A DNA stretch of 64,000 nucleotides from Clostridiaceae bacterium (GCA_018384365.1 JAHAYX010000001.1:33475-97474), one strand, 5' to 3'; shown: positions 5,273 through 52,796, numbered from the stretch's first letter. Notes: generated by a model not told the origin, from the letters alone. A program made the numbers and translations.

Positions 5273-5989
5273 ATGGCGGATACAGGTTACATTCACTCCT
5301 TTCAATCCATGGGAGCCGTTGACGGGCCGGGCCTGCGCTTTGTCGTGTTTTTACAGGGCTGCCCCTCCCGCTGCATCTATTGCCATAATCCCGACACCTG
5401 GGAATTTTCCGGCGGTACGCCCTGGGAACCGGCGGAGGTCGTGCGCAAAATTCTGCGTTACCGGCTGTATTTGAAAAACGGCGGTGTCACTGTCACCGGC
5501 GGCGAGCCGCTCGCGCAGCCGGGCTTTGTGGCGGAGCTTTTCCGTCTGCTCCACGCCGAGGGCATCCATACAGCGCTGGATACCAGCGGCATCGGAACGC
5601 CGGAGGGGATACAGCGTGTGCTGCGGCATACGGATCTGGTGCTGGCTGACGTGAAATTCTGCACAGAAGCTGCGTATCGCCGTTACTGCGCGATGGATTT
5701 TGGAAAGGTTTGTCGTTTTCTTGATGCGGTGCGCGATGCTGCCATTCCCATGTGGGTGCGGCGCGTTGTCGTGCCGGGGCTCAACGATACGCCGGAGGAT
5801 ATCCATGCGCTTCTTTCCTTCCTTACGGCTTACCCCAACACGCAAAAGGTGGAGCTTCTGCCCTTCCGGAAGCTGTGTCTGGAAAAATACGAGAGTCTGG
5901 GCATCCCCTTCCCGCTCCGGGACACACCGGAACTGTCAGAGTCGGTTCTTTCCATGCTTTCCGCGATGCTTCCGCCGCATTTGCGGTGA
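5273..5989 (+). CDS. pflA: Pyruvate formate-lyase activating enzyme (radical SAM)
   Basis: 238 aa. SMGAVDGPGLRFVVFLQGCPSRCIYCHNPDTW contains the CxxxCxxC cluster. Lies immediately downstream of pflB. Confidence 0.9.
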   Translation: MADTGYIHSFQSMGAVDGPGLRFVVFLQGCPSRCIYCHNPDTWEFSGGTPWEPAEVVRKILRYRLYLKNGGVTVTGGEPLAQPGFVAELFRLLHAEGIHTALDTSGIGTPEGIQRVLRHTDLVLADVKFCTEAAYRRYCAMDFGKVCRFLDAVRDAAIPMWVRRVVVPGLNDTPEDIHALLSFLTAYPNTQKVELLPFRKLCLEKYESLGIPFPLRDTPELSESVLSMLSAMLPPHLR

Positions 5990-41896: not shown

Positions 41897-42088
41897 ATGG
41901 AAAATTTGAACACCTTGCTTCAGAACGCAGGAACGGCGGCCTGCATCAATTCACTGCCGCTTGCCATGGCCTATATTCCCCTCCAGAGATGGGAGGATAT
42001 CTATGATACGCAGACGGCGTTTGACCGCGGCACTATCTTCCGCGCGCTGGATAAGCCGTTTACGGGGAAGGGGGCCGAGAGGAAATGA
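41897..42088 (+). CDS. cotJA: Spore coat-associated protein CotJA
   Basis: 63 aa. LPLAMAYIPLQRWEDIYDTQTAFDRGTIFRALDKPF is the CotJA signature. Overlaps cotJB by 4 nt. Confidence 0.8.
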   Translation: MENLNTLLQNAGTAACINSLPLAMAYIPLQRWEDIYDTQTAFDRGTIFRALDKPFTGKGAERK

Positions 42089-42339
42089 GCGATATGGGCA
42101 ATCTGCTCCGTGATGTACAGATGGCGGAATTTGCGCTGGTTGAGGCCAACCTCTTCCTTGACACGCACCCTACCGACCCGAATGCGCTGGAATACTTCTG
42201 CAAATACCAGCAAATCCATGAAAAGGCCGTGGAGGCCTACACCGCAGTCTATGGCCCCCTGACCGCCATGCAGCACACCGGCGGCAGGTGGAAATGGACC
42301 GACGGACCGTTTCCGTGGGAACGCGCCGCAAACGTCTGA
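42085..42339 (+). CDS. cotJB: Spore coat protein CotJB
   Basis: 84 aa. LLRDVQMAEFALVEANLFLDTHPTDPNALEYF...YGPL is typical of CotJB. Confidence 0.85.
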   Translation: MSDMGNLLRDVQMAEFALVEANLFLDTHPTDPNALEYFCKYQQIHEKAVEAYTAVYGPLTAMQHTGGRWKWTDGPFPWERAANV

Positions 42340-42355: not shown

Positions 42356-42541
42356 ATGTGGATTTATGAGAAGAAATTAGAGTATCCTGTCAGCATCAAA
42401 ACACCCAATCCCAAGCTCGCCCTGGCAATCATCAGCCAGTTGGGCGGACCGGATTGCAGCAGCCTGCAGTTTTTGCCCGGGGATACAATAAAAACGCCGC
42501 CCCAGTGGGACGGCGCCTTCTTTTGGAGCTTTATGCTTTGA
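42356..42541 (+). pseudogene. cotJC: cotJC 5' segment. The first 33 codons are CotJC; the ORF then reads into the inserted element.
   Basis: MWIYEKKLEYPVSIKTPNPKLALAIISQLGGPD matches the CotJC N-terminus (B. subtilis MWVYEKKLQYPVKV...QYGGADGEL, from memory). Similarity is lost after codon 33 (CSSLQFLPG...stop). Confidence 0.85.
42446..42454. repeat. attL core (GG-A-CCGGAT)
   Basis: GGACCGGAT here versus GGTCCGGAT at 52290..52298. The junctions share GG plus CCGGAT. Confidence 0.6.
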
Positions 42542-43478
42542 AAAGGACTTTCAGCGAATTATAGTAATAGAACGGGACGAGGAGGTCCGTATGCGTGAAG
42601 TCGGACAGGGCGAAGAAGATGTTGTTCTTTACCGGATCCGTACCGTAGGAGAATACCTCGCCCTTCGGAATGTACTTCATCTGCTCGGTCATCGGCGCAA
42701 CGTCATTCGGGTAACCGTTGGAGGCGAAAATGAAGAACGGAAGCTCCGGATGCTCGCGCACCGGCTGCTGCACATAGTCCAGCACCTGCTCCGGCGTGAT
42801 TTCCTCGCGGATGGAGTGGCCGGCGGTTGTGTGGCAGCTCATCGGGGCAAACCATCTGAAATAGGCAAAGTCATTGTGGAAGATATTCCAGGTTGCAACG
42901 CTGCCGCGGGAATAGCCGCTGAAGGCGCGGTGGTCACGCGTGGCCCGGATGGCTTCTGGCGAAGCATCGGTGAGATAGGTGTTATACCGCAGTTCCACCG
43001 CCGGGATGATGTCCTCCACCACTTCGCGGTAGAAATTCGGCTTTGCATGGGGCCATCCGCCGTCGCCTGCCGGAACCTGACCGCTGCGGCGGCGTTCCTC
43101 CACGTCCTTCGTCACATCAAAGTAATAGGTCGTGGAAACGATGATGCAGGGGTCGATCTCGCCGGACTCGAACAGCATATCGAACAGTTTTCTGTTCTCC
43201 GGAACCGCAAAAATCTCCGGATCGCAGGTATTTCCGTGCTGATAGTACAGTACATTATACTTTCTGTCCTTGTCATTCGGGTCATAGCAGTATGGCAGAT
43301 AGACATTGCAGTATTTCGGATGGGTCACGCCGTCCTCATAAACCGAGGTCGTGTAATCCACGCGCTCCACACGGCCGATTTTTTTCGGTTCGCCGCGAAG
43401 TCCCTGGTTTTCCACGAATACGGTTTCAAAATCAATCACTTCTCCGGCCTTGTGGATGATGGTTTTCAGTTCGCTCAT
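42531..43478 (-). CDS. Alpha/beta-hydrolase esterase (putative-esterase / CE1-like family)
   Basis: 315 aa. YNVLYYQHG...AFSGYSRGS (GxSxG-type elbow). Resembles esterase-D/feruloyl-esterase-type proteins. Confidence 0.65.
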   Translation of the reverse strand: MSELKTIIHKAGEVIDFETVFVENQGLRGEPKKIGRVERVDYTTSVYEDGVTHPKYCNVYLPYCYDPNDKDRKYNVLYYQHGNTCDPEIFAVPENRKLFDMLFESGEIDPCIIVSTTYYFDVTKDVEERRRSGQVPAGDGGWPHAKPNFYREVVEDIIPAVELRYNTYLTDASPEAIRATRDHRAFSGYSRGSVATWNIFHNDFAYFRWFAPMSCHTTAGHSIREEITPEQVLDYVQQPVREHPELPFFIFASNGYPNDVAPMTEQMKYIPKGEVFSYGTDPVKNNIFFALSDFTHTDLLVPFYYYNSLKVLFKA

Positions 43479-43528
43479 GCTGTTTTTCTCCTTTCATTTT
43501 CTGTTTTTCCGCGTTTTTTCTTTCCTGT

Positions 43529-44284
43529 TCAGCCGCGTGCAAGCGGCGGATATACAATCCCGAGTTCCTCTCGGTACGCGCAGACATACCCCTTGAAATG
43601 TGGGTTTTCGAAGGATTTTTCCTCAATTTTGCCCGCAAGGATGTCATCGGCCAGCTTCGTAAGCCGCAGCAGAACATCCTTGCCGATCGGGGTTTCGCCG
43701 TGCGCAGGCCAGGTGAGGTCATATTCGCTGCCGAGATCCAGAATACGCTGCATCGATCTGCGGTATCCGGGCAGACCGTGCTGTGCGGCAAACGCCAGAA
43801 CCTCGCCGCGGCCACAGGTGTCGCCGGTGAAAAGCTGGCGGCGCTCCACGTCGAGAATACAGATGCTGCCGTTTGAGTGACCGGGCGTCAGGTACACGCG
43901 CAGGGTTCTGCCGCCGAGGTCGAACACGTGTCCGTCGTCAATTCCGGTGATCTCCAGCGGGACGGGGCGCGGCAGCGGACCGGGGCCTTTGCCGCTTGCA
44001 TCGCGGGCATAGCCTTCCAGATCCTCCTTTGCGATGTAACGCTCGGCAAAATCAGCGTTTCCGGCGATGTGGTCGCCATGGCTGTGGGTATTGACGACTG
44101 CGACCGGTTTCTCGGTCAGTCCGGCGACGATTCCGCCTAGATCAATATTCCCCAGGCCGGAGTCAATCAGTATGGCCCTGTTTTCGCCCTCCAACAGATA
44201 GCAGTACACGCCAAGGCGATGATTGGTTTCCTCAATCTGCCAGGTGTGTTCGTCCAGTTGTTTTACCGTGTACCCAATTTCCAT
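43529..44284 (-). CDS. MBL-fold metallo-hydrolase
   Basis: ORF 43529..44575. ATG at 44284 follows GGAGG. VNTHSHGDHIAGN (HxHxDH) and TPGHSNGS. 251 aa. Confidence 0.85.
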   Translation of the reverse strand: MEIGYTVKQLDEHTWQIEETNHRLGVYCYLLEGENRAILIDSGLGNIDLGGIVAGLTEKPVAVVNTHSHGDHIAGNADFAERYIAKEDLEGYARDASGKGPGPLPRPVPLEITGIDDGHVFDLGGRTLRVYLTPGHSNGSICILDVERRQLFTGDTCGRGEVLAFAAQHGLPGYRRSMQRILDLGSEYDLTWPAHGETPIGKDVLLRLTKLADDILAGKIEEKSFENPHFKGYVCAYREELGIVYPPLARG

Positions 44285-44364
44285 AACAAACCTCCGTTTC
44301 CATCCGGGGAAGCTCGATTCCCCGCCGTTTTTTCTGTCTTTTCCGGTTTCCCGGAGACGATGCC

Positions 44365-46107
44365 TTACGAATACAGGGAGCCGAGTATCAGGAATACCGC
44401 CGCCGTCCACGCCATACGGTTCGGATAGCGGGTGGACCAGCGTCCTTCGCTGACATCCTTTCCGGTTTTCGGATTGATCACCATCGGATAGCCGCTTGCC
44501 GCAAGCGCTCGGCAATAACGCAGCGCGATTTCCTTTGCCAGTTCGTCCTTGCCGCACGCACGCAGGCCAAGGCAAACCAACATCTGCGCAGGAGCCAGAA
44601 TCGGGCCGGCAGACCAGCCGGTTTCATGGTAATGATCGCTGTCGAGCCGCTCGCCCGCCAGGCCGTAAGGCGTCAGCCAGGCGCCCTCCTCGGAGAGCGC
44701 GGCGGTCATTTTCTCTATCATCTCCTGCGGCAGACGCTTGCCCAAAAGCAGCGGAACAAAGGACATGATCGAACCGCAATCCACCCACTCATGCGTCCCG
44801 CTGACGCGTGAGGTGAACTTTTCGCCGTTCCAGAAGAACGAAAGCGTGGTCTCCAGCATCCGGTCGGCGCGGGCCTTCCACTCCCGCATTTCATAAGTCT
44901 TTCCCAGGCGTCCGGCCAGCACCGCGAGTTGATCCATCGCCAGCACTAAATAGGTTGCAAGATCCGGCGCAGCGGTCGGTCCGCCCATTTTGAAGAAGGA
45001 ACTGTCGTCCCAGCCGGATTCATCGGCAGTATCGTACTGCACAATGCCGTCCTGATCCGTATCGCGGTAGGTGAGCCACCAGAACACCCATTTGGACAGC
45101 CCGTCATACAAAGTCAGCTGCTCCCGGCGCGTGGCAAAGGAGAAATCCGTAAATTCCTGCAAAAATTCCAGCGCAACGCCGTGAAACGGCGGCTTGGTTC
45201 CGCCGTAACTCTGCGAAGCGTCCGTCAGAATGTCCGCCAGCATGCCATACTCATCCTGATAATAAAAAACGGACAGCAGCAGTTCCCAGGCAAAGCGCGG
45301 ATTGCGATACTGGGCCATGGCGTGATAGCACTGCTGCCAGCTGGAGGTGCAGCGGTGCACGCCCTTGTTCATATAAATAATGTCCATGTCGTCGATGCGC
45401 ATGATATGCGACCAGATGAGATAGGCATTCAGGATGCGTGCCTCCGCGAATTCTTCGGAAAGCGGCGGAACGGTATCGAGATATTCGGAAAATTCCCGCT
45501 CGATGCCGGCAATGCAGCGGTCAAAGGCAGGGTATTTTTCCATACGCCAGCCGTTTGATTTATAAAGATGTACCGCCAGATCCACCTTGCCGGTCCCGTC
45601 CGGGCGGAACACGAATTTCGTCTCCTCCGGCACGCTGTTGATCACATCAAAGCCGGTGGAAACGTCCATTTCCCCGATGACCGGACAGAACAGCAGCTTC
45701 GGCACCGGGTTCATGATCACTTCCCAGCTTCCGTCGTTGCGGGTTTTGGCAATTTCGTGCGGAGCAAGCGCGGGAGAAAACACAACCTCCACATTCTCCG
45801 CTTCCATGCGCAGGATGCTGCCCTCCTGCAGGCAGATCCGCGCCGTGCCGCCGTCATAGGCAAGCGTCACGCACACGGGCGTTGCCGTTGCGCGGTAAGG
45901 CACCGTTTCCCCGTTGCGCACAAGCCGGACCGGGAACAGTCTGCCCGCGCGGGGTTTCCCGGCGGGACCCGCATTGTCCAGCCCGGAGAGCAGGGCACAG
46001 ACATAAAGCGTCTCGGCGCCGTCTTCCTCCCAGGCGCCGACATAGTAAAATGTACCGCGGCGTCCGTAGGAGATGCGGGTGAGATCATACTGAATTGTTT
46101 CAAACAT
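44365..46107 (-). CDS. Six-hairpin (alpha/alpha)6 glycoside hydrolase-like protein (GH63/trehalase/MGH-like)
   Basis: 580 aa. YDTADESGWDDSSFF and a C-terminal half rich in W/Y, as in clan GH-G enzymes. Family assignment not verified. Confidence 0.55.
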   Translation of the reverse strand: MFETIQYDLTRISYGRRGTFYYVGAWEEDGAETLYVCALLSGLDNAGPAGKPRAGRLFPVRLVRNGETVPYRATATPVCVTLAYDGGTARICLQEGSILRMEAENVEVVFSPALAPHEIAKTRNDGSWEVIMNPVPKLLFCPVIGEMDVSTGFDVINSVPEETKFVFRPDGTGKVDLAVHLYKSNGWRMEKYPAFDRCIAGIEREFSEYLDTVPPLSEEFAEARILNAYLIWSHIMRIDDMDIIYMNKGVHRCTSSWQQCYHAMAQYRNPRFAWELLLSVFYYQDEYGMLADILTDASQSYGGTKPPFHGVALEFLQEFTDFSFATRREQLTLYDGLSKWVFWWLTYRDTDQDGIVQYDTADESGWDDSSFFKMGGPTAAPDLATYLVLAMDQLAVLAGRLGKTYEMREWKARADRMLETTLSFFWNGEKFTSRVSGTHEWVDCGSIMSFVPLLLGKRLPQEMIEKMTAALSEEGAWLTPYGLAGERLDSDHYHETGWSAGPILAPAQMLVCLGLRACGKDELAKEIALRYCRALAASGYPMVINPKTGKDVSEGRWSTRYPNRMAWTAAVFLILGSLYS

Positions 46108-46331
46108 GGCGTCCCCTCATTTCCAAATTTCCATATTTTATCTTACCATACCCCGGTGCCGATTACAATGCAATTCTGTGGTTCCGTTACGATTGGTATA
46201 TTTTCAAACTCTCGCCGGGTTTTGGCTAAAACATCTAAAATTTTATCGCGCTCATCGGTTATCCTTGCCATTTTTCCGATAATGTGTTAACCTGTAATCA
46301 TAAAATGAGACACAGGAAAGGAACAGAAGCT

Positions 46332-47720
46332 ATGAATCGGTTTACATTTGGTGAGCGCGCGCCGCTGGAAAACGTCAATTTTGAAACCAAAACCAGGCTT
46401 CCTCCGATCAACGGCCTGAAGGAATGCCGCCAGGGCATTGTGCCCGGCATGGTCAACGTCTGGTATGAATATCTGCCTGCCGCTTATGACGGGAAAACCG
46501 CTCTGCCGCTGATTGTGCAAGTGCACGGCGGCGGGCACGACGGCCGCCGCTGGGCGGATTTCACGCTCTGGCATGTGCTGGCGGAGCGGCTCGGCCTGAT
46601 CGTCATTTACCCCAACTCCCCGGACTACGGTTCCTGGCACTGCGATGACCGCGATGTGGAGTATCTGTATCAGCTCATCGGCATTGTCTGTGAAAAATAC
46701 AACGTTGACCGTACCCGCATCTATATGCAGGGAATGTCCAACGGCGATATGATGACCTTAGCCTTCACCATGCAGCATCCCGAGGTGCTGGCGGCTGCAG
46801 GGTATTCCACCGGACCGTCTGCCGAAATCTACGTTGGCGACGAGCGCCCCACCGCTGCACTGCCGGCCATCCAGATGCGCGGCGAATATGACATCATTTT
46901 CCGCCTGCTCGACGAAGACCCGCTCGATGCCTATGAAACCCGCTATCGCATGAACGACTTCAACCGCGAAATCTGGATTGAAAAGAACGGGCTGGATTCC
47001 CTGCCGGATCTGACCTTCCGCGGCAAAGACAATTTCATGCGTTTCCGCGGCAAAAACGCCGATCTGATTAACTGGGAGGTCGTCGGCTGCGGCCATCGCG
47101 AACCGGCGGATATGGCACAGGTCTACTGGGATTGCCTCTATTCCGGATGCCGCCGCGTAGACGGAAAGCTTGTCTACTCGCCCTGCGAGGATGCACTGGA
47201 ACCGGATCAGGATATTGCGGTCATTGCGCTGGGCAGCCGCAAGGTCTACTTAAACGGGCGCATGGAGGAAATGACACCGATTGAGACCGGCGTTGTGCGC
47301 AGCTTTGACCCCGGCCCCGGCAACTACACCAAAACGGCAGGCGCGCATGAAATGCTGGAAACTCCCGCGCTTTGTGCGCCGGTGGAGTTCTTCCGCGCCG
47401 CCTTCGGCGCCGAAGTGCGCTATCTTGACGCGGGTGACCGTGCCGAAGTGTGCTTCCCGGACGGAAACCGCGCCATTTTCCACTCCAATTCCCTGCTTGT
47501 GGAGTATAACGGCAAGTTCCGCTCCATGCGCAAGCCCTGCACCTTGCTTTGCGGCACCTTCTATGTGCCCGTCGGCGAGTTCTGCGGCGATTTCCTGGGT
47601 AAATTTGTCTCCGAAGCATCCGACCTGATGCTGATCAGCGGACATTCGGCCATTCTGGGCCGTTATACCGCGCGTGTGCTGCGCAAGTTGCTGGGCGGCT
47701 ATGTCCGCGCCGTAAAATAA
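46332..47720 (+). CDS. Esterase of the PHB-depolymerase/feruloyl-esterase (LpqC-like) family with C-terminal copper-amine-oxidase-N-like domain
   Basis: ORF 46284..47720. ATG at 46332. VQVHGGGHDG...IYMQGMSNGDMM (GxSxG). Confidence 0.65.
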   Translation: MNRFTFGERAPLENVNFETKTRLPPINGLKECRQGIVPGMVNVWYEYLPAAYDGKTALPLIVQVHGGGHDGRRWADFTLWHVLAERLGLIVIYPNSPDYGSWHCDDRDVEYLYQLIGIVCEKYNVDRTRIYMQGMSNGDMMTLAFTMQHPEVLAAAGYSTGPSAEIYVGDERPTAALPAIQMRGEYDIIFRLLDEDPLDAYETRYRMNDFNREIWIEKNGLDSLPDLTFRGKDNFMRFRGKNADLINWEVVGCGHREPADMAQVYWDCLYSGCRRVDGKLVYSPCEDALEPDQDIAVIALGSRKVYLNGRMEEMTPIETGVVRSFDPGPGNYTKTAGAHEMLETPALCAPVEFFRAAFGAEVRYLDAGDRAEVCFPDGNRAIFHSNSLLVEYNGKFRSMRKPCTLLCGTFYVPVGEFCGDFLGKFVSEASDLMLISGHSAILGRYTARVLRKLLGGYVRAVK

Positions 47721-47752
47721 GAAGAAAAAACAATTATAAAGGAGTGTATGAT

Positions 47753-48850
47753 ATGGAATTTTCAGCTTATGCTTTTATCGGCCTGACCGGCCAGGAAATT
47801 TCCCGCTTTGAGATCCCTTGGGAGGGCGAAGCGCCCGCCATGGAAGCCATTCATCTGGAGGGTCCGGCTGTTGAAACAGACCGCATCCGGTATCTGAAGG
47901 AAACCCGCGGCACAGCGCCCGGCGATGTGACAGATGCTGTGCTCGACGGCGGTGTTTTGAAGATCACCGTTGTTCCCGCCACCACCCGCGCCGATTTCAC
48001 GCTGGTCATCGGTGAAAAGCGTATCGGCCGCGGGGAATTCACCATCCACACCAGAACCGTGGACGATAAATTTGCACGCCTTGAGGAAGGCCGCGTCATG
48101 TACCGTCTGTACACGCCGGAAGGCTCCGGCAAACGCCCGATGATCCTGTTCCTCCATGGCGGCGGAAACGGCGGCTATGAGGGCGAGCGCGATAACGAAA
48201 AGCACATCATTACGGACTACGGCCCCGTCAACTTCGCCGAGAATTATCCGGACATCTATGTCATGGCGCCGATGGCAGTGGAAGTGCGCCGTGATATGCG
48301 CAATTTCAACATGAATAACAGCTTTGCAAACAGCGATTCCTTCAATGTTCCGGGCTATGGCTGGAGCAGAGATTACCTCGGCCTGGTACTGGATATCATC
48401 CGCCGCATGGTTGCGGAAGGGAAAGTGGATGAAAAGCGCATTTACGTCACCGGTATGTCCATGGGCGGCGCCGGCACCATCCGTGCCATGTCCGTCGGTT
48501 CGGACCTGTTTGCCGCCTGCGTCCCGGTCTGCCCGACCATGACACCCGAGACCTTTTCCATCCTCAAGTCCATGCGCCGCCCCGTATGGGTCACCTCGGC
48601 CTATATCGACCACACGCTCTACCGGCACAAATATCTGGTGGACGCCGTCATGTCCATGCGCGACAACGGCAATAACAATGCACACCTGACGCTGTTCTCC
48701 CCGGAAGAGCTGGAAAAATACGATATTGCCATCACACCGAATCTGCCTTATCCGAAGTTGTTCAGCGAGAACCATGCAAGCTGGGTGCCTACCTATAAAA
48801 ACGAATACGGCATCATGTCCTGGCTGCTGAACCAGACCAAGGACGAATAA
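47753..48850 (+). CDS. Alpha/beta hydrolase (carboxylesterase/peptidase S9-like)
   Basis: ORF 47744..48850. ATG at 47753 is 8 nt after AAAGGAG. ILFLHGGGNGG...IYVTGMSMGGAG (GxSxG). Confidence 0.7.
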   Translation: MEFSAYAFIGLTGQEISRFEIPWEGEAPAMEAIHLEGPAVETDRIRYLKETRGTAPGDVTDAVLDGGVLKITVVPATTRADFTLVIGEKRIGRGEFTIHTRTVDDKFARLEEGRVMYRLYTPEGSGKRPMILFLHGGGNGGYEGERDNEKHIITDYGPVNFAENYPDIYVMAPMAVEVRRDMRNFNMNNSFANSDSFNVPGYGWSRDYLGLVLDIIRRMVAEGKVDEKRIYVTGMSMGGAGTIRAMSVGSDLFAACVPVCPTMTPETFSILKSMRRPVWVTSAYIDHTLYRHKYLVDAVMSMRDNGNNNAHLTLFSPEELEKYDIAITPNLPYPKLFSENHASWVPTYKNEYGIMSWLLNQTKDE

Positions 48851-48990
48851 AATCTGCCTTTCTTTTCAAAAGGACGGTTGGTTCCTGCGGGATTTTCTGC
48901 GGAGCCAACCGTTCGCAGTCCTTTTCCCCGAAAGCATTCCAACCGGAGGGGATTTCCGCTGCGTTTCACGAGAGGGGAGTTTGATCAGTC

Positions 48991-50355
48991 TTGAAAACAA
49001 GTTCCAGAGATCTGACGCAGGGCAGCATCGCCAAACAGCTTTTGCTGTTTGCGCTGCCCATCTTCGCCGGACAGATCTTTCAGAATCTCTATAACAGCGT
49101 GGATTCCATCATCGTCGGGCAGGCCGTCGGCACAACGGCCCTTGCGGCAGTTTCCGCCAGCAGCGATATTTCCATGCTGCTCGTCGGCTTCTTCACGGGC
49201 CTTTCCACCGGCGCAGGCGTTCTTTTTTCGCGTTTCTTCGGCGCAAAAGACGAGCAGAACCTGCACGACGCCATCCACACCGCCATCACCTTTTCCCTGC
49301 TCTTCGGCGTCCTCATCGCAGGCGCCGGTATCTTCTTTTCGCCGATGCTGCTGCGTGTGGTCAACTGCCCGCAGGACGTATACCTCGAGGCGCTGGATTA
49401 TTTGCGCATTTATCTGATCGGCGTACTGTTTACCGCGATCTATAATGTTGGCGCGGGCGTTCTGCGCGCGGTCGGCGATTCTCGTACGCCGTTTATTTAC
49501 CTCGTGATTTCCAGCTGCTGCAACATTGCGCTGGACATTATTCTGGTTGCGCTGCTGCATCTGGGCGTTTCCGGCGCAGCGCTGGCCACAATTCTCTCCC
49601 AGTTCATCAGCGTCGTGCTGGTTTTCCGCCGGATGCTGCTGACACAGGACGTGTATAAGCTGATACCGCGCGACCTGAAGATTCACCGTGCGCTTTTGAA
49701 GGACATTCTGCGGCTTGGGCTTCCCGCTGCGATTCAGGCCTGCTTGATCGGCCTGAGCAATGTCTTTATTCAGCGTTATATCAACAGCTTCGGTTCCGCC
49801 GCCATGGCCGGTATGGGCGCGGGCAAACGGATCGACCGCTTTGTCGGTATGGTTGCGCAGTGCCTTGGCCTTGCCACAGCCACCTTTGTCGGACAAAATG
49901 TCGGCGCCGAGCGCCTCGACCGTGCCTTCCGGGGAATCCGCGTGGTGCTGCTCGTCTGCTTCAGTTATGTGCTCGTCGCAGGCTGCATCGTCTATCTGCT
50001 GGCCGAACCGCTGGTGCACATTTTCACAAACGACGAAAATGCCATTGCCTTTGGCGTCTCCATGATTCATGTCATGATGCCGTTCTACTTCTGTCAGGCG
50101 TTGAACCAGGTCTTTGCAAACGCCGTGCGCGGCTTCGGCAAGAGCTTTGTCGTGATGATCTGCAGTATCTCCGGCATGATCGTCTGCCGTCAGATCTTCC
50201 TCGCCATTATGATGAGTTTCTGGCACGATATCCGTATTCTCTATTTCAGCTTCCCCTTCGGCTGGATCTGCGCCTCCGGCGCTGTGATGGTCTATTATTT
50301 CTTCACCATCCGCAGAAAATATCCGGAGGAAGCCAGGCTCCGCCGGTCAGCATAA
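48991..50355 (+). CDS. MATE-family efflux transporter
   Basis: 454 aa, TTG start. DLTQGSIAKQLLLFALPIFAGQIFQNLYNSVDSIIVGQ is the canonical MATE N-terminus. 12 TM segments. Confidence 0.9.
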   Translation: MKTSSRDLTQGSIAKQLLLFALPIFAGQIFQNLYNSVDSIIVGQAVGTTALAAVSASSDISMLLVGFFTGLSTGAGVLFSRFFGAKDEQNLHDAIHTAITFSLLFGVLIAGAGIFFSPMLLRVVNCPQDVYLEALDYLRIYLIGVLFTAIYNVGAGVLRAVGDSRTPFIYLVISSCCNIALDIILVALLHLGVSGAALATILSQFISVVLVFRRMLLTQDVYKLIPRDLKIHRALLKDILRLGLPAAIQACLIGLSNVFIQRYINSFGSAAMAGMGAGKRIDRFVGMVAQCLGLATATFVGQNVGAERLDRAFRGIRVVLLVCFSYVLVAGCIVYLLAEPLVHIFTNDENAIAFGVSMIHVMMPFYFCQALNQVFANAVRGFGKSFVVMICSISGMIVCRQIFLAIMMSFWHDIRILYFSFPFGWICASGAVMVYYFFTIRRKYPEEARLRRSA

Positions 50356-50425
50356 ACTCCGGCGCACCGCCGTCTGCGCGGCGTCCCATCCAAAACAGGG
50401 ACGCCGCGTTTTTTGCGTCCGTCCG

Positions 50426-50626
50426 CTATTCGGGCCGGATACTCCCCTCTCCACCCTCCGCCGCGCGGGAAAACAGGGCGCGTCCCGCATAGAATTCATT
50501 CAGAAAAGCCAGCATATTCCGGGTTGCCAGTTCCCGGCGCTGCGCTTCCGTCAGTTCGTGCACGGGAACAGGCCGTCCCTCCACATGCACAAAGGAAACC
50601 GAGTCCGGCATTTTCCGCTTCGCCAT
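50426..50626 (-). CDS. Small basic/acidic protein (66 aa), divergent from the recombinase
   Basis: AGGAGG 7 nt upstream of the ATG. MAKRKMPDSVSFVHVEGRPVPVHELTEAQRRELATRNMLAF... No family recognised. Confidence 0.55.
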   Translation of the reverse strand: MAKRKMPDSVSFVHVEGRPVPVHELTEAQRRELATRNMLAFLNEFYAGRALFSRAAEGGEGSIRPE

Positions 50627-50817
50627 ATTTCCGCCTCCTTTTGCAAAGCTGCGCTACTCTATGCACCGCGCAGCCTGTCTGATTCCTCATTTTTGGTCCC
50701 GGAGGCTTTTTCCGGTTCTGCGTATGCCCCATGGTGCGTATAGTTCTGGTGTTTTTCCTGCGGCGCACCCCGTTTGCAGTCCGGTGCGCCGTCAAATACC
50801 GGGAAGGAGGGAGCGCC

Positions 50818-52266
50818 ATGCCGGAGCAGAAAACCGCCGCGGCCTATATCCGCGTCAGCACTGAGGAGCAGACAGAATACTCCCCGGACGCACAGCTGGC
50901 CGAAATCCGCAAATATGCCGCGCGCGAGGGATATCGGCTTCCGGAGGAGTTTATTTACATAGACGAAGGGATCAGCGGCCGCGGTACCGCGCGGCGCGAG
51001 GCCTTTAACCGCATGATCGGCACGGCAAAGCAGCAGCCGAAGCCTTTTGACGCCATTCTGCTCTGGAAATTCTCGCGTTTTGCGCGCAACCGGGAGGACA
51101 GTGTGGTGTATAAATCCCTGCTGCGCCGCCAGCTCGGCATTGAGGTCGTTTCCGTTTCCGAGCCGGTGGGCGATGACAAGATGAGTGTGCTGATGGAAGC
51201 GCTGATCGAGGCCATGGACGAATACTACTCCATCAACCTGGCCGAAGAGGTCCGCCGCGGCATGACGGAAAAAGCACGGCGCGGCGGACTGCAGAACGGC
51301 GCGCCCTTTGGCTATCGGGTAGAGCGGAATGTTCTGGTTCCCCAGCCGGAGGAGGCGGCGCTTGTGCGCGGAATGTTCGAGCGGTTTGCCGCGGGCGAGG
51401 GGGTTTATCAGATTGCGCGGCAGCTGAACGCCGCCGGCGCACGCACCCTGCGCGGAAACCGGTTTGAAAGCCGGACCGTCGCCTATATTCTGCAAAATCC
51501 CGCGTATATCGGCAAACTGCGCTGGAATCCCGCCGGCCGCGGCGGCCGCAGAGAGAATCCGTCGGGCGGAATTCTCGCGGATGCACAGCATACGCCGCTT
51601 GTGGAGTCCGCGCTGTGGGAGCTGGTGCAGCGGCGCATGGAATCCGTGAAGGCGGCACAGCCGCAGCGGGCAAAGCCATCATCTTCACAGAAGGACTGGC
51701 TCTCCGGTCTTGTCCGCTGTCCGGCGTGCGGGAACACGCTGGTCTTTGTGAAACCGCATTACTATAAATGCGGCGGCTATATCAAGGGATCCTGCCCCTA
51801 TTCCCAGCACATAACGGCGGCGCTTTTAAAGGAGGCCCTGATCGCCCGGTTGGAGCAGGACATGGCGCATTTTGACCCGATTTCCTATACGGTCATAGCT
51901 GCCGGACAGTCGAATGCGCAGGAGGAACTGCTGCGGCAGCAGATTGCGGATCGGAAACGGCGTCTGGCCCGCCTGCGCGAGGCTTATCTGGCCGGACTTG
52001 AGTCCCTCGAAACATATCAGGCCGAACGGGAACAGGTCTGCGCGCAGCTTTCGGCGGCGCAGGAGGCATTGGCACACGCCGGCGTCCCGGCCTCCCGCGG
52101 CGAAATGCAGCAGCAGCTTGCCGCAGAGATTTCCTCCGCCCTTGGCATACTGCGCTCCGGCGCGCCGCCGGAACGCAAGCACAGCGCTGTGGCCGCCATT
52201 CTCTCCCGCTGCACGTGGGACCGTGCAGCCAACCGTCTGACGCTTTACTACCGCGCCAGTCTGTAA
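50818..52266 (+). CDS. Large serine recombinase (SpoIVCA/SprA-like architecture)
   Basis: ORF 50731..52266. ATG at 50818 follows GGAAGGAGGG. AAAYIRVSTEEQ catalytic serine motif, resolvase domain, recombinase domain, zinc ribbon WLSGLVRCPACGNTLVF...YYKCGGYIKGSC, and a coiled-coil C-terminus. 482 aa. Confidence 0.9.
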   Translation: MPEQKTAAAYIRVSTEEQTEYSPDAQLAEIRKYAAREGYRLPEEFIYIDEGISGRGTARREAFNRMIGTAKQQPKPFDAILLWKFSRFARNREDSVVYKSLLRRQLGIEVVSVSEPVGDDKMSVLMEALIEAMDEYYSINLAEEVRRGMTEKARRGGLQNGAPFGYRVERNVLVPQPEEAALVRGMFERFAAGEGVYQIARQLNAAGARTLRGNRFESRTVAYILQNPAYIGKLRWNPAGRGGRRENPSGGILADAQHTPLVESALWELVQRRMESVKAAQPQRAKPSSSQKDWLSGLVRCPACGNTLVFVKPHYYKCGGYIKGSCPYSQHITAALLKEALIARLEQDMAHFDPISYTVIAAGQSNAQEELLRQQIADRKRRLARLREAYLAGLESLETYQAEREQVCAQLSAAQEALAHAGVPASRGEMQQQLAAEISSALGILRSGAPPERKHSAVAAILSRCTWDRAANRLTLYYRASL

Positions 52267-52289
52267 ACCGCAGGTTGCCGCCATCCGGT

Positions 52290-52298
52290 GGTCCGGAT
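52290..52298. repeat. attR core (GG-T-CCGGAT)
   Basis: Counterpart of 42446..42454. Lies about 25 nt after the recombinase stop and immediately before CotJC codon GELGAS. Confidence 0.6.
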
Positions 52299-52796
52299 GG
52301 CGAGCTGGGCGCGTCGCAGCGGTATCTCAGCCAGCGTTATAGTATGCCGGATCCGAAAGTCGCAGGGCTTCTCACCGACATCGGAACGGAGGAACTGGCG
52401 CATCTTGAAATTGTCAGCGCAATCATTTATCAGCTCACGCGGAATATTTCGATTGACGACATCAAAAAAAGCAACTTTGAGCCGTACTATGTCGATCACA
52501 CGACCGGCGTTTATCCGCAGGCAGCGGCAGGCTGGCCCTTCACGGCAAAAACCTTCCAGTCCAAGGGCGATCCCATCACCGACCTGTTTGAGGACATGGC
52601 AGCAGAGCAGAAGGCGCGCACCACCTATGACAATCTGCTTCGCCTGATCGACGATCCCGACGTGCGCGACCCGATCAAATTCCTGCGGGAGCGCGAAATT
52701 GTGCACTTCCAACGCTTCGGCGAAGCGCTCGGCGCGGTGCAGGATGAGCTGGACTCCAAAAATTTCTACGCCTTCAACCCCGCTTTTGACAAATAA
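52299..52796 (+). pseudogene. cotJC: cotJC 3' segment (Mn-catalase-family spore coat protein, codons ~34 to end)
   Basis: GELGASQRYLSQRYSMPDPKVAGLLTDIGTEELAHLEIVSAIIYQL...DMAAEQKARTTYDNLL...FLREREIVHFQRF is colinear with CotJC. There is no plausible start or RBS of its own at the right position. Confidence 0.9.

Follow-up and report, generated by a model that had tools for sequence, protein, structure and literature searches.

In the 64,000-nt stretch of gut Clostridia DNA analysed here (the window), cotJC is split within codon 31 by an element that carries its own large serine recombinase. The sequences at the two ends show that, if these recombined at a GG dinucleotide, a complete CotJC of 198 aa would be rebuilt and a circle with a symmetric attP set free. 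We predict that the element likely excises during sporulation, because its recombinase and a small gene (orf66) form a module with a motif that resembles a sporulation promoter, as in the Clostridioides difficile skin element. Features of the split operon and the element are as follows.

41897..42088, plus strand: cotJA, first gene of the split operon (Pfam CotJA, E = 3.3e-17)
42085..42339, plus strand: cotJB (Pfam CotJB, E = 2.3e-26)
42356..42447, plus strand: 5' part of cotJC, covering codons 1-30 and the GG of codon 31
42416..42477, plus strand: attL, consisting of the attB left arm, the crossover GG (42446-42447), and the attP right arm
42448..52291, no strand assigned: intervening element, 9,844 bp, inserted in codon 31 of cotJC
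42531..43478, minus strand: esterase-like protein, 315 aa, cargo (weak Pfam match to Esterase, E = 1.2e-4)
43529..44575, minus strand: metallo-beta-lactamase-fold hydrolase, cargo (Pfam Lactamase_B, E = 7e-24)
44365..46107, minus strand: MGH1-like/trehalase-like glycoside hydrolase, 580 aa, cargo (Pfam MGH1-like_GH, E = 4.7e-30)
46284..47720, plus strand: PHB-depolymerase-type esterase-like protein, cargo (Pfam Esterase_PHB, E = 1.2e-7)
47744..48850, plus strand: alpha/beta hydrolase, Peptidase_S9/PETase-like, cargo
48991..50355, plus strand: MATE-family efflux transporter, cargo (Pfam MatE, E = 4.6e-56)
50426..50626, minus strand: orf66, 66 aa, conserved, divergent from the recombinase; candidate recombination directionality factor
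50656..50685, minus strand: promoter-like motif GAATC-AGACA-N12-CATAGAGT, upstream of orf66
50818..52266, plus strand: large serine recombinase, 482 aa (Pfam Resolvase, 3.6e-28; Recombinase, 3.1e-24; Zn_ribbon_recom, 1.1e-8)
52260..52321, plus strand: attR, consisting of the attP left arm, the crossover GG (52290-52291), and the attB right arm
52292..52796, plus strand: 3' part of cotJC, from the third base of codon 31 to the stop codon

The cotJC gene is interrupted after 30 2/3 codons. Its 5' part, read as an open reading frame, runs on into the element as far as a stop at 42541. A first-pass annotation of the window had described this frame (42356..42541) as 33 CotJC residues followed by divergence, with the CotJC frame found again from 52299 to the stop at 52796; this description holds, and the coordinates given for the split gene and the element are correct to the base. 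Searches with tblastn matched the 5' fragment at 100% over residues 1-33 and the 3' fragment at 100% over residues 30-198. The annotation had also held that joining 42447 to 52292 restores the protein, and the in-silico product is indeed an in-frame 198-aa sequence with a Pfam Mn_catalase match (E = 2.4e-51 over residues 1-183) that is colinear with solved Mn catalases, junction included. Uninterrupted cotJA-cotJB-cotJC contigs, of the kind it had suggested looking for in relatives, were recovered from other samples (P0121, L086-L088) and encode a protein 100% identical to the joined CotJC. The split is therefore a real insertion rather than a chance arrangement. The order cotJA, cotJB, intact cotJC is present in L086-L092, and the product belongs to the CotJC/Mn-catalase family. 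Neither a second cotJC nor sporulation genes other than the cotJ operon were found in the 64-kb window. A -10-like box, CATATACT, lies ~45 nt 5' of the cotJA start, and the cotJ operons of relatives are preceded by a sigma-K-type promoter, AC-N16/17-CATAttATA. In C. difficile, cotJ-like operons are sigma-K dependent, and we infer that cotJC of this organism is expressed in the mother cell.

The 482-aa recombinase proposed in the annotation, with a stop about 25 nt from the right junction, is supported by its Pfam domains and by a match to the PHROG integrase family phrog_95 (2e-101). The distance from its stop to the junction in attR is 25 nt. A catalytic serine, S14, lies in the motif YIRVST near the N-terminus and is invariant across an alignment of 26 sequences. 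The crossover was assigned to the GG dinucleotide because empty sites read GGT, compared to GGA in attL and GGT in attR. When attP is rebuilt, this GG is the centre of an imperfect inverted repeat of 25 bp, with 21 of 25 positions symmetric, and attB is less symmetric (12 of 30 positions). Serine integrases in general use an attP of about 50 bp with such repeats and a less symmetric attB, and the two sites need have just the central dinucleotide in common. This combination of domain set, symmetric attP, and less symmetric attB is that of a serine integrase. By Pfam, no phage, conjugation, or mobilisation genes are recognisable in the 9,844 bp, whose cargo genes code for hydrolases and a transporter. 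The real start of the metallo-beta-lactamase-fold gene is probably internal (gene calls in relatives are 251 aa).

Related recombinases, 41-57% identical to that of the window, were compared at 79 species-level genome loci. A cotJC fragment lies ~20-150 nt from the recombinase stop in 74 of these, and all 73 resolved junctions fall at the same cotJC dinucleotide, in two orientations that track GG versus CC. The window recombinase is one member of a large clade, present in Oscillospirales genomes and in viral contigs, whose target is this one cotJC dinucleotide. Viral contigs carry integrases of the same clade with an intact attP 30-40 nt past the recombinase, and tail and baseplate genes are present on one of them; in unintegrated relatives, 15-20 of 22 positions of an intact attP are symmetric. 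At L069 a copy is arranged in tandem, head to tail, and an attP junction is present. Recombinases unrelated to this clade insert at other conserved points of cotJC. What the family shares is a module consisting of the recombinase and a gene of ~66 aa without family assignment.

Homologues of orf66 were identified with jackhmmer at 33 related loci, where they occur inside the element and always on the opposite strand and upstream of the recombinase. A minimal element of just 2.75 kb also has one. The family forms 49 clusters among 1.84 billion representatives. An AF2 model predicts a beta-hairpin and a long helix (pLDDT 75.5). A Pfam search with orf66 gave no match, and comparison with known directionality factors, which are themselves mutually unrelated, showed no likeness by sequence or fold. 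Co-occurrence, position, and the promoter motif make orf66 a candidate directionality factor for the window recombinase.

The -10-like box of the motif begins 37 nt ahead of the start codon of orf66. The motif has a -10 and a -35 like those of mother-cell sigma factors and a GGACA like the SpoIIID box, and the form kept upstream of orf66 homologues is GAATA-GGACA-N12-CATAG. The pattern RGACR-N12-CATAG has one match in the 64-kb window, upstream of orf66, compared to 0.24 expected by chance. Across all loci (1.43 Mb), 12 of 29 matches to GGAC[AG]-N12-[CA]ATA[GT] lie within 120 nt upstream of orf66 homologues. No conserved motif of this type was found upstream of the related recombinases. Spacing from AC to CATA is 13 in the orf66 motif versus 16-17 in the cotJ promoters of relatives; sigma-E and sigma-K have a common -10 and differ at the -35, ATA versus AC (PMC3789822), and the SpoIIID consensus is TAGGACAAGC (PMC11180830). 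Judged against consensus sequences from B. subtilis as well as C. difficile, this motif looks like a promoter for a mother-cell sigma factor combined with a SpoIIID box, and a conserved small gene behind such a motif fits a directionality factor under mother-cell control.

The reading that we find probable, if well short of certain, is that an integrative element inserted in cotJC is excised in the mother cell under orf66 control, rebuilding the gene. The recombinase would be made constitutively and would have moved the element into a conserved attB in codon 31. Its directionality factor would be orf66, transcribed from a mother-cell promoter with a sigma-E/K-type -10 (CATAG), a -35 (GAATA), and an overlapping SpoIIID-like GGACA box, and attL x attR recombination would therefore be confined to the mother cell, which is terminally differentiated. 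Excision would rebuild cotJC before or during expression of the cotJ operon, and the forespore would retain the element with its hydrolases and MATE transporter. Experiments have shown this control logic in C. difficile, for skin (CD1231/CD1234), as well as in B. subtilis, for SP-beta (SprA/SprB).

A plain integrative element, or a prophage in decay, that uses a highly conserved stretch of cotJC just as a reliable landing site, inactivates the gene in its carriers, and excises, if at all, for transfer and not for development, is an unlikely explanation that nonetheless keeps some weight because of empty sites in the same species and likely phages with an intact attP in the family. Empty-site contigs are just 96-98.7% identical to the window and represent other strains, not excision products; such strains occur within the species of the window, and a sister species has near-isogenic occupied and empty alleles with flanks 99.7% identical. 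Variable presence within species is what a plain integrative element would produce. The viral contigs (one with tail genes) agree with it as well, as do the unrelated recombinases at other conserved points, as if conservation alone drives targeting, and the tandem with its attP junction, a sign of activity with no obvious tie to sporulation. Some Oscillospiraceae and related genera have been described as non-spore-forming, which also favors this explanation. Neither JGI metagenomes nor IMG/VR yielded the attP junction of the window element. Phenotypes of B. subtilis cotJ mutants are mild, and losing cotJC may therefore be tolerable.

A plain integrative element would, however, leave the conserved sporulation-type motif before orf66 without a reason, and minimal elements that have no transfer or phage genes (e.g., L027) retain an intact recombinase and orf66. 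It also sits poorly with the absence of decay in the cotJC fragments examined. Among class-A 3' fragments without a further cut, all 29 have kept a full open frame, and early stops fall at discrete further insertion points, except at two loci where the frame ends just ~20 codons early. All 20 variable cotJC sites among three occupied strains are synonymous, compared to 22% expected for random changes, but this pattern may predate the insertion or reflect recombination, because occupied and empty alleles are intermixed among strains (L174 and the empty L087 have identical 3' parts).

Expression of SprB in SP-beta is both stress-driven and sporulation-driven. A comparable dual use here, in which mother-cell excision is joined by vegetative excision under other signals for horizontal transfer, would account for the allele polymorphism, including the one species with both alleles, and for the phage relatives, where orf66 and its motif are likewise present, on contigs whose attP is intact and of which one has phage tail genes. 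We regard it as quite improbable: the window element has no recognisable genes for phage, conjugation, or mobilisation functions, no second promoter was identified for orf66, and the proposal mostly overlaps with mother-cell excision, the vegetative route being its sole addition. Misassembly of the element into cotJC in a metagenome-derived contig is suggested by short empty-site contigs in related samples but is extremely improbable, as the same element, cargo, and junctions recur in five or more assemblies made independently (L173-L177), the junction dinucleotide is the same in 73 resolved genome loci, and the att symmetry is typical of a real serine-integrase site.

Mother-cell excision of the window element would have close parallels in known systems. 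The skin element in C. difficile sigK (skin-Cd; CD1231 and CD1234) likewise has a large serine recombinase at its edge, adjoining the 3' gene fragment, and sigma-E and SpoIIID control its directionality factor, an orphan protein of 72 aa (PMC5025042). The recombinase of skin-Cd is sigma-A driven and, like that of the window, has no sporulation promoter. Both small proteins (72 and 66 aa) are encoded within the element, behind a mother-cell promoter with a SpoIIID box in skin-Cd and apparently similar sequences here. In skin-Cd the target is a sigma factor gene rather than a coat enzyme gene, hydrolase and transporter cargo is a feature of the window element, and orf66 has no detectable likeness to any named protein; unlike skin-Cd, the window system is known from sequence alone. 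SP-beta, by the accounts in PMC4191935 and PMC5499854, is also a case of a phage-type serine integrase in a late mother-cell envelope gene (spsM), with a sporulation-controlled directionality factor. The window clade mixes phage-like and degraded elements, and the window element differs from SP-beta in its lack of phage genes and in its host (Clostridia, Oscillospirales). In Bacillus cereus ATCC10987, the gin element (GirC/GirX), which interrupts gerE, is likewise a non-prophage element in a small sporulation gene, with a serine recombinase, a small accessory factor, and attP-type inverted repeats around a central dinucleotide, but it is 28.6 kb long and has three recombinases, and both girC and girX are sporulation-specific, whereas in the window the motif occurs at the small gene only (PMC5595907).

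The first-pass annotation had proposed a skin-like element in a new target gene. The first part is supported by the anatomy: a serine recombinase has inserted the element precisely within a gene of a mother-cell-type spore-coat operon, the recombinase lies at the edge, and joining attL to attR restores the frame. The novelty of the target does not, since cotJC had been named in earlier in-silico reports. According to the preprint bioRxiv 2021.11.22.469490, it appears in a list by Abe et al. 2013 (Mol Microbiol 90:415) of sporulation genes with phage or transposon integrations, and in Laceyella sacchari, as described by Galperin et al. 2022 (bioRxiv 2022.02.25.481979), cotJC contains a skin-like element. 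These cases share the target gene, a phage-, transposon-, or skin-like element, and a SpoIVCA-like recombinase, and they concern other taxa (Laceyella belongs to the Bacilli). In the single line or table entry that each receives, att sites, a family survey, and a control module, as given here, do not appear. The window element would thus be an addition to known skin-like elements that interrupt cotJC.

Up to three independent serine-recombinase elements may be stackable in the 600-bp cotJC, at codon 31, codons 62-68, and around codon 136. We put forward, as a tentative proposal that we hold with less than even confidence, that cotJC is a multi-site landing pad in Oscillospirales, orf66 a new class of directionality factor, and the inserted accessory DNA germline-only. 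If so, the mother cell would have to remove every stacked element, SpoIIID and sigma-E would control the orf66 family directly, and a sizeable share of the accessory DNA of gut spore-formers, including phages and metabolic cargo, would be deleted from the somatic mother cell. The nif and hup elements of cyanobacterial heterocysts offer an analogy from another phylum and cell type, with mostly other recombinases: as described in PMC4874684 and PMC11249958, genes required solely in a terminally differentiated cell are interrupted and rebuilt by excision, sometimes with several recombinase-bearing elements in one gene.

The cotJC gene was found to be interrupted by a 9,844-bp insertion that carries a large serine recombinase gene at its right end. 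Every coordinate in the first-pass annotation proved accurate when the window was re-examined, including a recombinase stop codon 25 nt from the junction at the end of the insert. The features of the locus are as follows.

41897..42088: cotJA, first gene of the operon
42085..42339: cotJB, directly before the split cotJC
42356..42541: 5' cotJC ORF; its first 33 residues are CotJC, after which it diverges, with a stop at 42541
50426..50626, minus strand: orf66, 66 aa, divergent from the recombinase gene
50818..52266: large serine recombinase, 482 aa, with Resolvase, Recombinase, and Zn_ribbon_recom domains (Pfam)
52299..52796: 3' cotJC, from the point where the frame resumes to its end

Joining 42447 to 52292 in silico, as had been proposed, gives an in-frame ORF of 597 nt (198 aa). 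The product matches the Pfam family Mn_catalase (E=2.4e-51), and solved Mn catalases align to it with no gap over the junction. An uninterrupted cotJC, expected in relatives, is present in public data. Protein P0121 is 100% identical to the in silico join and is encoded on three short contigs (L086–L088) with an unbroken cotJA-cotJB-cotJC, whose DNA is 96%–98.7% identical to the window on both sides of the insertion. The 9.8-kb element, cargo included, also occurs in five more assemblies (L173–L177) with 97.8% identity to the window across 13 kb, flanks counted. The element in cotJC is a real and precise insertion. Its cargo, assigned using Pfam, comprises three esterase or alpha/beta-hydrolase-like proteins, a metallo-beta-lactamase-fold hydrolase, an MGH1/trehalase-like glycoside hydrolase, and a MATE transporter. 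Genes for phage functions, conjugation, or regulation were not recognized in the window element, and composition gave no signal, with G+C the same in the element and its flanks.

Empty sites in L086–L088 read TTGGGC-GG-TCCGGATGGCGAG, and the window reads GG-A at the left junction (attL) and GG-T at the right (attR). This comparison places the crossover at GG, bases 1 and 2 of codon 31 (42446–7 and 52290–1), and the element therefore spans 42448..52291, the bounds originally proposed for it. The reconstructed circular-element site (attP), AAACCGCAGGTTGCCGCCATCCGGT-GG-ACCGGATTGCAGCAGCCTGCAGTTT, is a 25-bp imperfect inverted repeat (21/25) with a non-palindromic central dinucleotide; symmetry in the empty site (attB) is far lower (12/30).

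attB sequence: …TTGGGCGGTCCGGATGGCGAG…
attP sequence of the window element: …CCATCCGGTGGACCGGATTGC…

A symmetric attP paired with a less symmetric attB is a signature of serine-integrase sites, and the attP-type architecture is like that described for GirC and phage integrases (PMC5595907). The insertion is a serine-integrase element at a fixed attB within cotJC, and recombination at GG would restore cotJC and yield a circle with the symmetric attP. Searches with the attP junction of the window element (27-mer and 22-mer) found no match in JGI metagenome contigs or IMG/VR, collections from which the host species may simply be absent.

Related recombinases share this target. Two that are 68%–72% identical (P0003 and P0004) lie between cotJB and a 3' cotJC fragment with rimP-nusA downstream, in elements whose cargo is unlike that of the window element. 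A sister species has both occupied (L002) and empty (L089) alleles, with flanks that are 99.7% identical. The family was surveyed in one genome per GTDB species using a 26-sequence recombinase alignment as the query. This yielded 79 loci (recombinase identity 41%–57%) from Oscillospiraceae, Ruminococcus, Butyricicoccus, Intestinimonas, Pseudoflavonifractor, Lawsonibacter, Oscillibacter, Sporobacter, an Anaerovoracaceae MAG, and Sinanaerobacter. A cotJC fragment lies ~20–150 nt from the recombinase stop in 74 of them. Junctions were resolved at 80 loci (73 survey loci, the window, and six related contigs), and all 80 have the same dinucleotide. At 55 loci the P arm leads into GG and then 3' cotJC; at the other 25 it leads into CC and then 5' cotJC in reverse complement, with cotJB and cotJA beyond. 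Insertion orientation thus follows the GG versus CC reading, the behavior expected of a serine integrase. Three of the five survey exceptions (L024, L041, and L049) and many IMG/VR viral contigs have an intact attP 30–40 nt past the recombinase, symmetric at 15–20 of 22 positions about GG or CC; L093, a contig with an intact attP, encodes baseplate and tail genes. The clade therefore takes in likely temperate phages as well as phage-free elements (2.75–10 kb), all specific for cotJC codon 31. The only full-length relative among GenBank phages (41% identity) is in a metagenome-derived record, so there is no cultured phage model.

In a mouse-gut MAG (L069 4747–13223, contig CAJUEC010000010.1), a 4,233-bp mini-element of orf66 and recombinase is arranged as a head-to-tail tandem within cotJC. 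An attP junction separates the copies, which are 99.98% identical; this reflects either true tandem integration or an assembly reading through an excised circle. The L001 element (313–1039), whose recombinase is the closest distinct one at 72% identity, encodes beside the recombinase an HTH_3 protein and a 123-aa protein made up of the Spo0A C-terminal (DNA-binding) domain only. The element might in this way modulate entry into sporulation.

The state of the split gene was assessed at the 55 loci where the 3' fragment adjoins the recombinase. The 3' frame is fully open (159–177 codons) at 29, stops early at 23, runs off the contig end at two, and is longer than expected at one. Early stops are clustered, not scattered, with about 18 at residues 62–78, three at 136, and two at 175. 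The clusters at 62–78 and 136 are further discrete insertions, each with a different serine recombinase where visible (21%–34% identical to that of the window); the two residue-175 loci (frames of 146–150 codons) probably just have a shorter C-terminus. With ~18 of 55 loci cut twice, cotJC is in three pieces in some genomes. The extra cut points are at codons 62–64 (GGTACAGA), codons 67–68, and about codon 136.

L010 11499–15162: extra cotJC insertion
L066 9962–16747: extra cotJC insertion
L082 11380–15736: extra cotJC insertion
L006 3669–3785: extra cotJC insertion
L003 11502–11621: extra cotJC insertion
L026, L027, L039: cotJC break at residue 136

The second cotJC insertion in the sister-species variant L003 (11746–21449) brings a giant polyvalent protein (>3,700 aa) with LPD3, ART-PolyVal, and MuF_C domains, a protein type characteristic of conjugative elements or phages.

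A candidate directionality factor is encoded by orf66. A jackhmmer search of small ORFs from the retrieved sequences identified homologs in 33 loci. They always lie upstream of the recombinase on the opposite strand and, for elements with both ends defined, within the element; the minimal element L027 contains one and little else. No Pfam or functional PHROG match was found. A word-indexed protein search returned only three close relatives, and a full HMMER scan of 1.84 billion representatives returned 49 clusters, none named. An AF2 model built on a four-sequence alignment has a beta-hairpin and a long helix (pLDDT 75.5), and Foldseek matched it to nothing below E=0.1 in PDB or BFVD.

Most aligned homologs are preceded by a GAATA-GGAC(A/G)-N12-CATAG(nn)T motif, with a -10-like box that begins 25–37 nt before the start codon and surroundings that are not conserved. 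Across 1.43 Mb on both strands, 12 of 29 strict matches fall within 120 nt upstream of an orf66 homolog. The single window match to a looser form (RGACR-N12-CATAG; 0.24 expected by chance) is upstream of orf66, and the motif also precedes orf66 in contigs with intact attP, including L093 with its phage tail genes. In C. difficile and B. subtilis, sigma-E and sigma-K promoters have a common -10 and differ at the -35, ATA versus AC (PMC3789822), and the high-affinity SpoIIID site is TAGGACAAGC (PMC11180830). Judged by sequence, the motif fits a predicted sigma-E-like promoter (GAATA, 17 nt, CATA) overlapping a SpoIIID-like box. Upstream of cotJA, relatives carry a sigma-K-type AC-N16/17-CATAttATA, and the orf66-type motif (AC-N13-CATA) was absent upstream of cotJ operons; the GGACA box is therefore probably not a sigma-K -35. 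Recombinases have no conserved sporulation-type motif upstream (9 of 86 with a relaxed pattern, at variable positions), and a simple sigma-70 scan identified no convincing recombinase promoter.

Strict GGACA-N12-CATA matches also precede other small ORFs of 52–82 aa (L036 2317, L071 9936, and L058 5944, minus strand) in elements whose recombinases are more distant (about 45%–49% identical). Those in L036 and L071 have an orf66-like pattern undetected by jackhmmer, and may be divergent counterparts of orf66. A relaxed sporulation-type match inside orf66 (50472–50495, plus strand; AACAGGGCGCGTCCCGCATAGAAT) is directed at the recombinase gene 320 nt downstream. It is conserved solely in a 97%-identical relative, and 1.3 chance matches are expected in the window at this stringency.

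These patterns suggest a mechanism that we favor with some reservation as a joint proposal. The recombinase would be made constitutively and orf66 would act as its directionality factor. The mother cell would turn on orf66 via sigma-E (or sigma-K) with SpoIIID, excision would rebuild cotJC early enough for the cotJ operon to be transcribed, and the element would be kept in the forespore. Among three carriers with both halves, all 20 variable sites in cotJC are third-position and synonymous, compared with a 22% synonymous share expected for random changes, which points to purifying selection acting on cotJC in its split state. Alleles with and without the element are interspersed (the 3' part in L174 is identical to that of the empty L087), so this variation may predate insertion or stem from recombination. 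The main rival, a plain integrative element that uses conserved cotJC sequence as a landing site and leaves the gene broken, seems unlikely. It draws on the presence/absence polymorphism, the phage relatives, the unrelated integrases that strike other conserved cotJC points, the L069 tandem with its attP junction, and reports that some Oscillospiraceae do not sporulate. A dual-use scheme like that of SP-beta is compatible with both mother-cell excision and a plain element. Chance-ORF and assembly-artifact readings were rejected; junctions agree across loci and the element recurs in further assemblies.

Skin-like insertions in sporulation genes are a well-known kind of element, including skin in sigK, SP-beta in spsM, vfbin in spoVFB, and vrin in spoVR (PMC4191935), gin in gerE (PMC5595907), and yin in yabG (PMC10747680). 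In skin-Cd, the directionality factor CD1234, an orphan protein of 72 aa, depends on sigma-E and SpoIIID for its transcription, and the recombinase is sigma-A driven (PMC5025042). The first-pass annotation had considered cotJC a new target gene, which it is not: a preprint on SP-beta relatives, citing Abe et al. 2013, names cotJC, gerE, yaaH, and yhbH as frequent integration sites, and Galperin et al. noted a skin-like element in cotJC of Laceyella sacchari. In the literature searched, the scale and precision of the cotJC association in Oscillospirales, the dependence of the two orientations on GG versus CC, the elements stacked at several cotJC points, and the orf66 family with its predicted SpoIIID-box promoter appear undescribed.

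Experimental proof of developmental excision from sporulation genes comes mainly from a few Bacillus species and C. difficile. Should the mechanism hold, such excision would also be at work in gut Clostridia that are abundant but poorly cultured (Oscillospiraceae, Ruminococcaceae, and Butyricicoccaceae), in a sharply defined system of one recombinase clade, one codon, and a 2-bp crossover, with a candidate 66-aa directionality factor and a recognizable promoter. It would open to test how the sporulation program takes over serine-integrase directionality factors, why several unrelated integrases favor conserved coat genes, and whether phages and metabolic islands exploit the mother cell/forespore division so as to stay heritable without harming the spore. 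The natural attB/attP pairs, with orientations set by GG versus CC, are useful for studies of integrase specificity.

Gene callers render the 3' cotJC fragment (window 52215–52796 and 52443–52796) as a "Mn catalase" of 173 or 150 aa. Such calls begin at internal or upstream start codons (P0137 and the 150-aa calls in L002 and L173), and split cotJC genes are therefore likely to go unnoticed in databases under the label of short catalase family proteins. Elsewhere the window contains genes for housekeeping and metabolism, with no other sporulation gene among them. About 34–36 kb (5990–39800) separate pflA (5273–5989) from proS/cotJA, and cotJA is almost directly after pflA in the sister species (L002 and L089). 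This region, either an island or ordinary rearranged synteny, encodes a GH95 glycosidase, two MutS-domain-V proteins, biotin synthesis genes with a ligase/repressor, a second PFL-like enzyme and its activase, and an ABC transporter.
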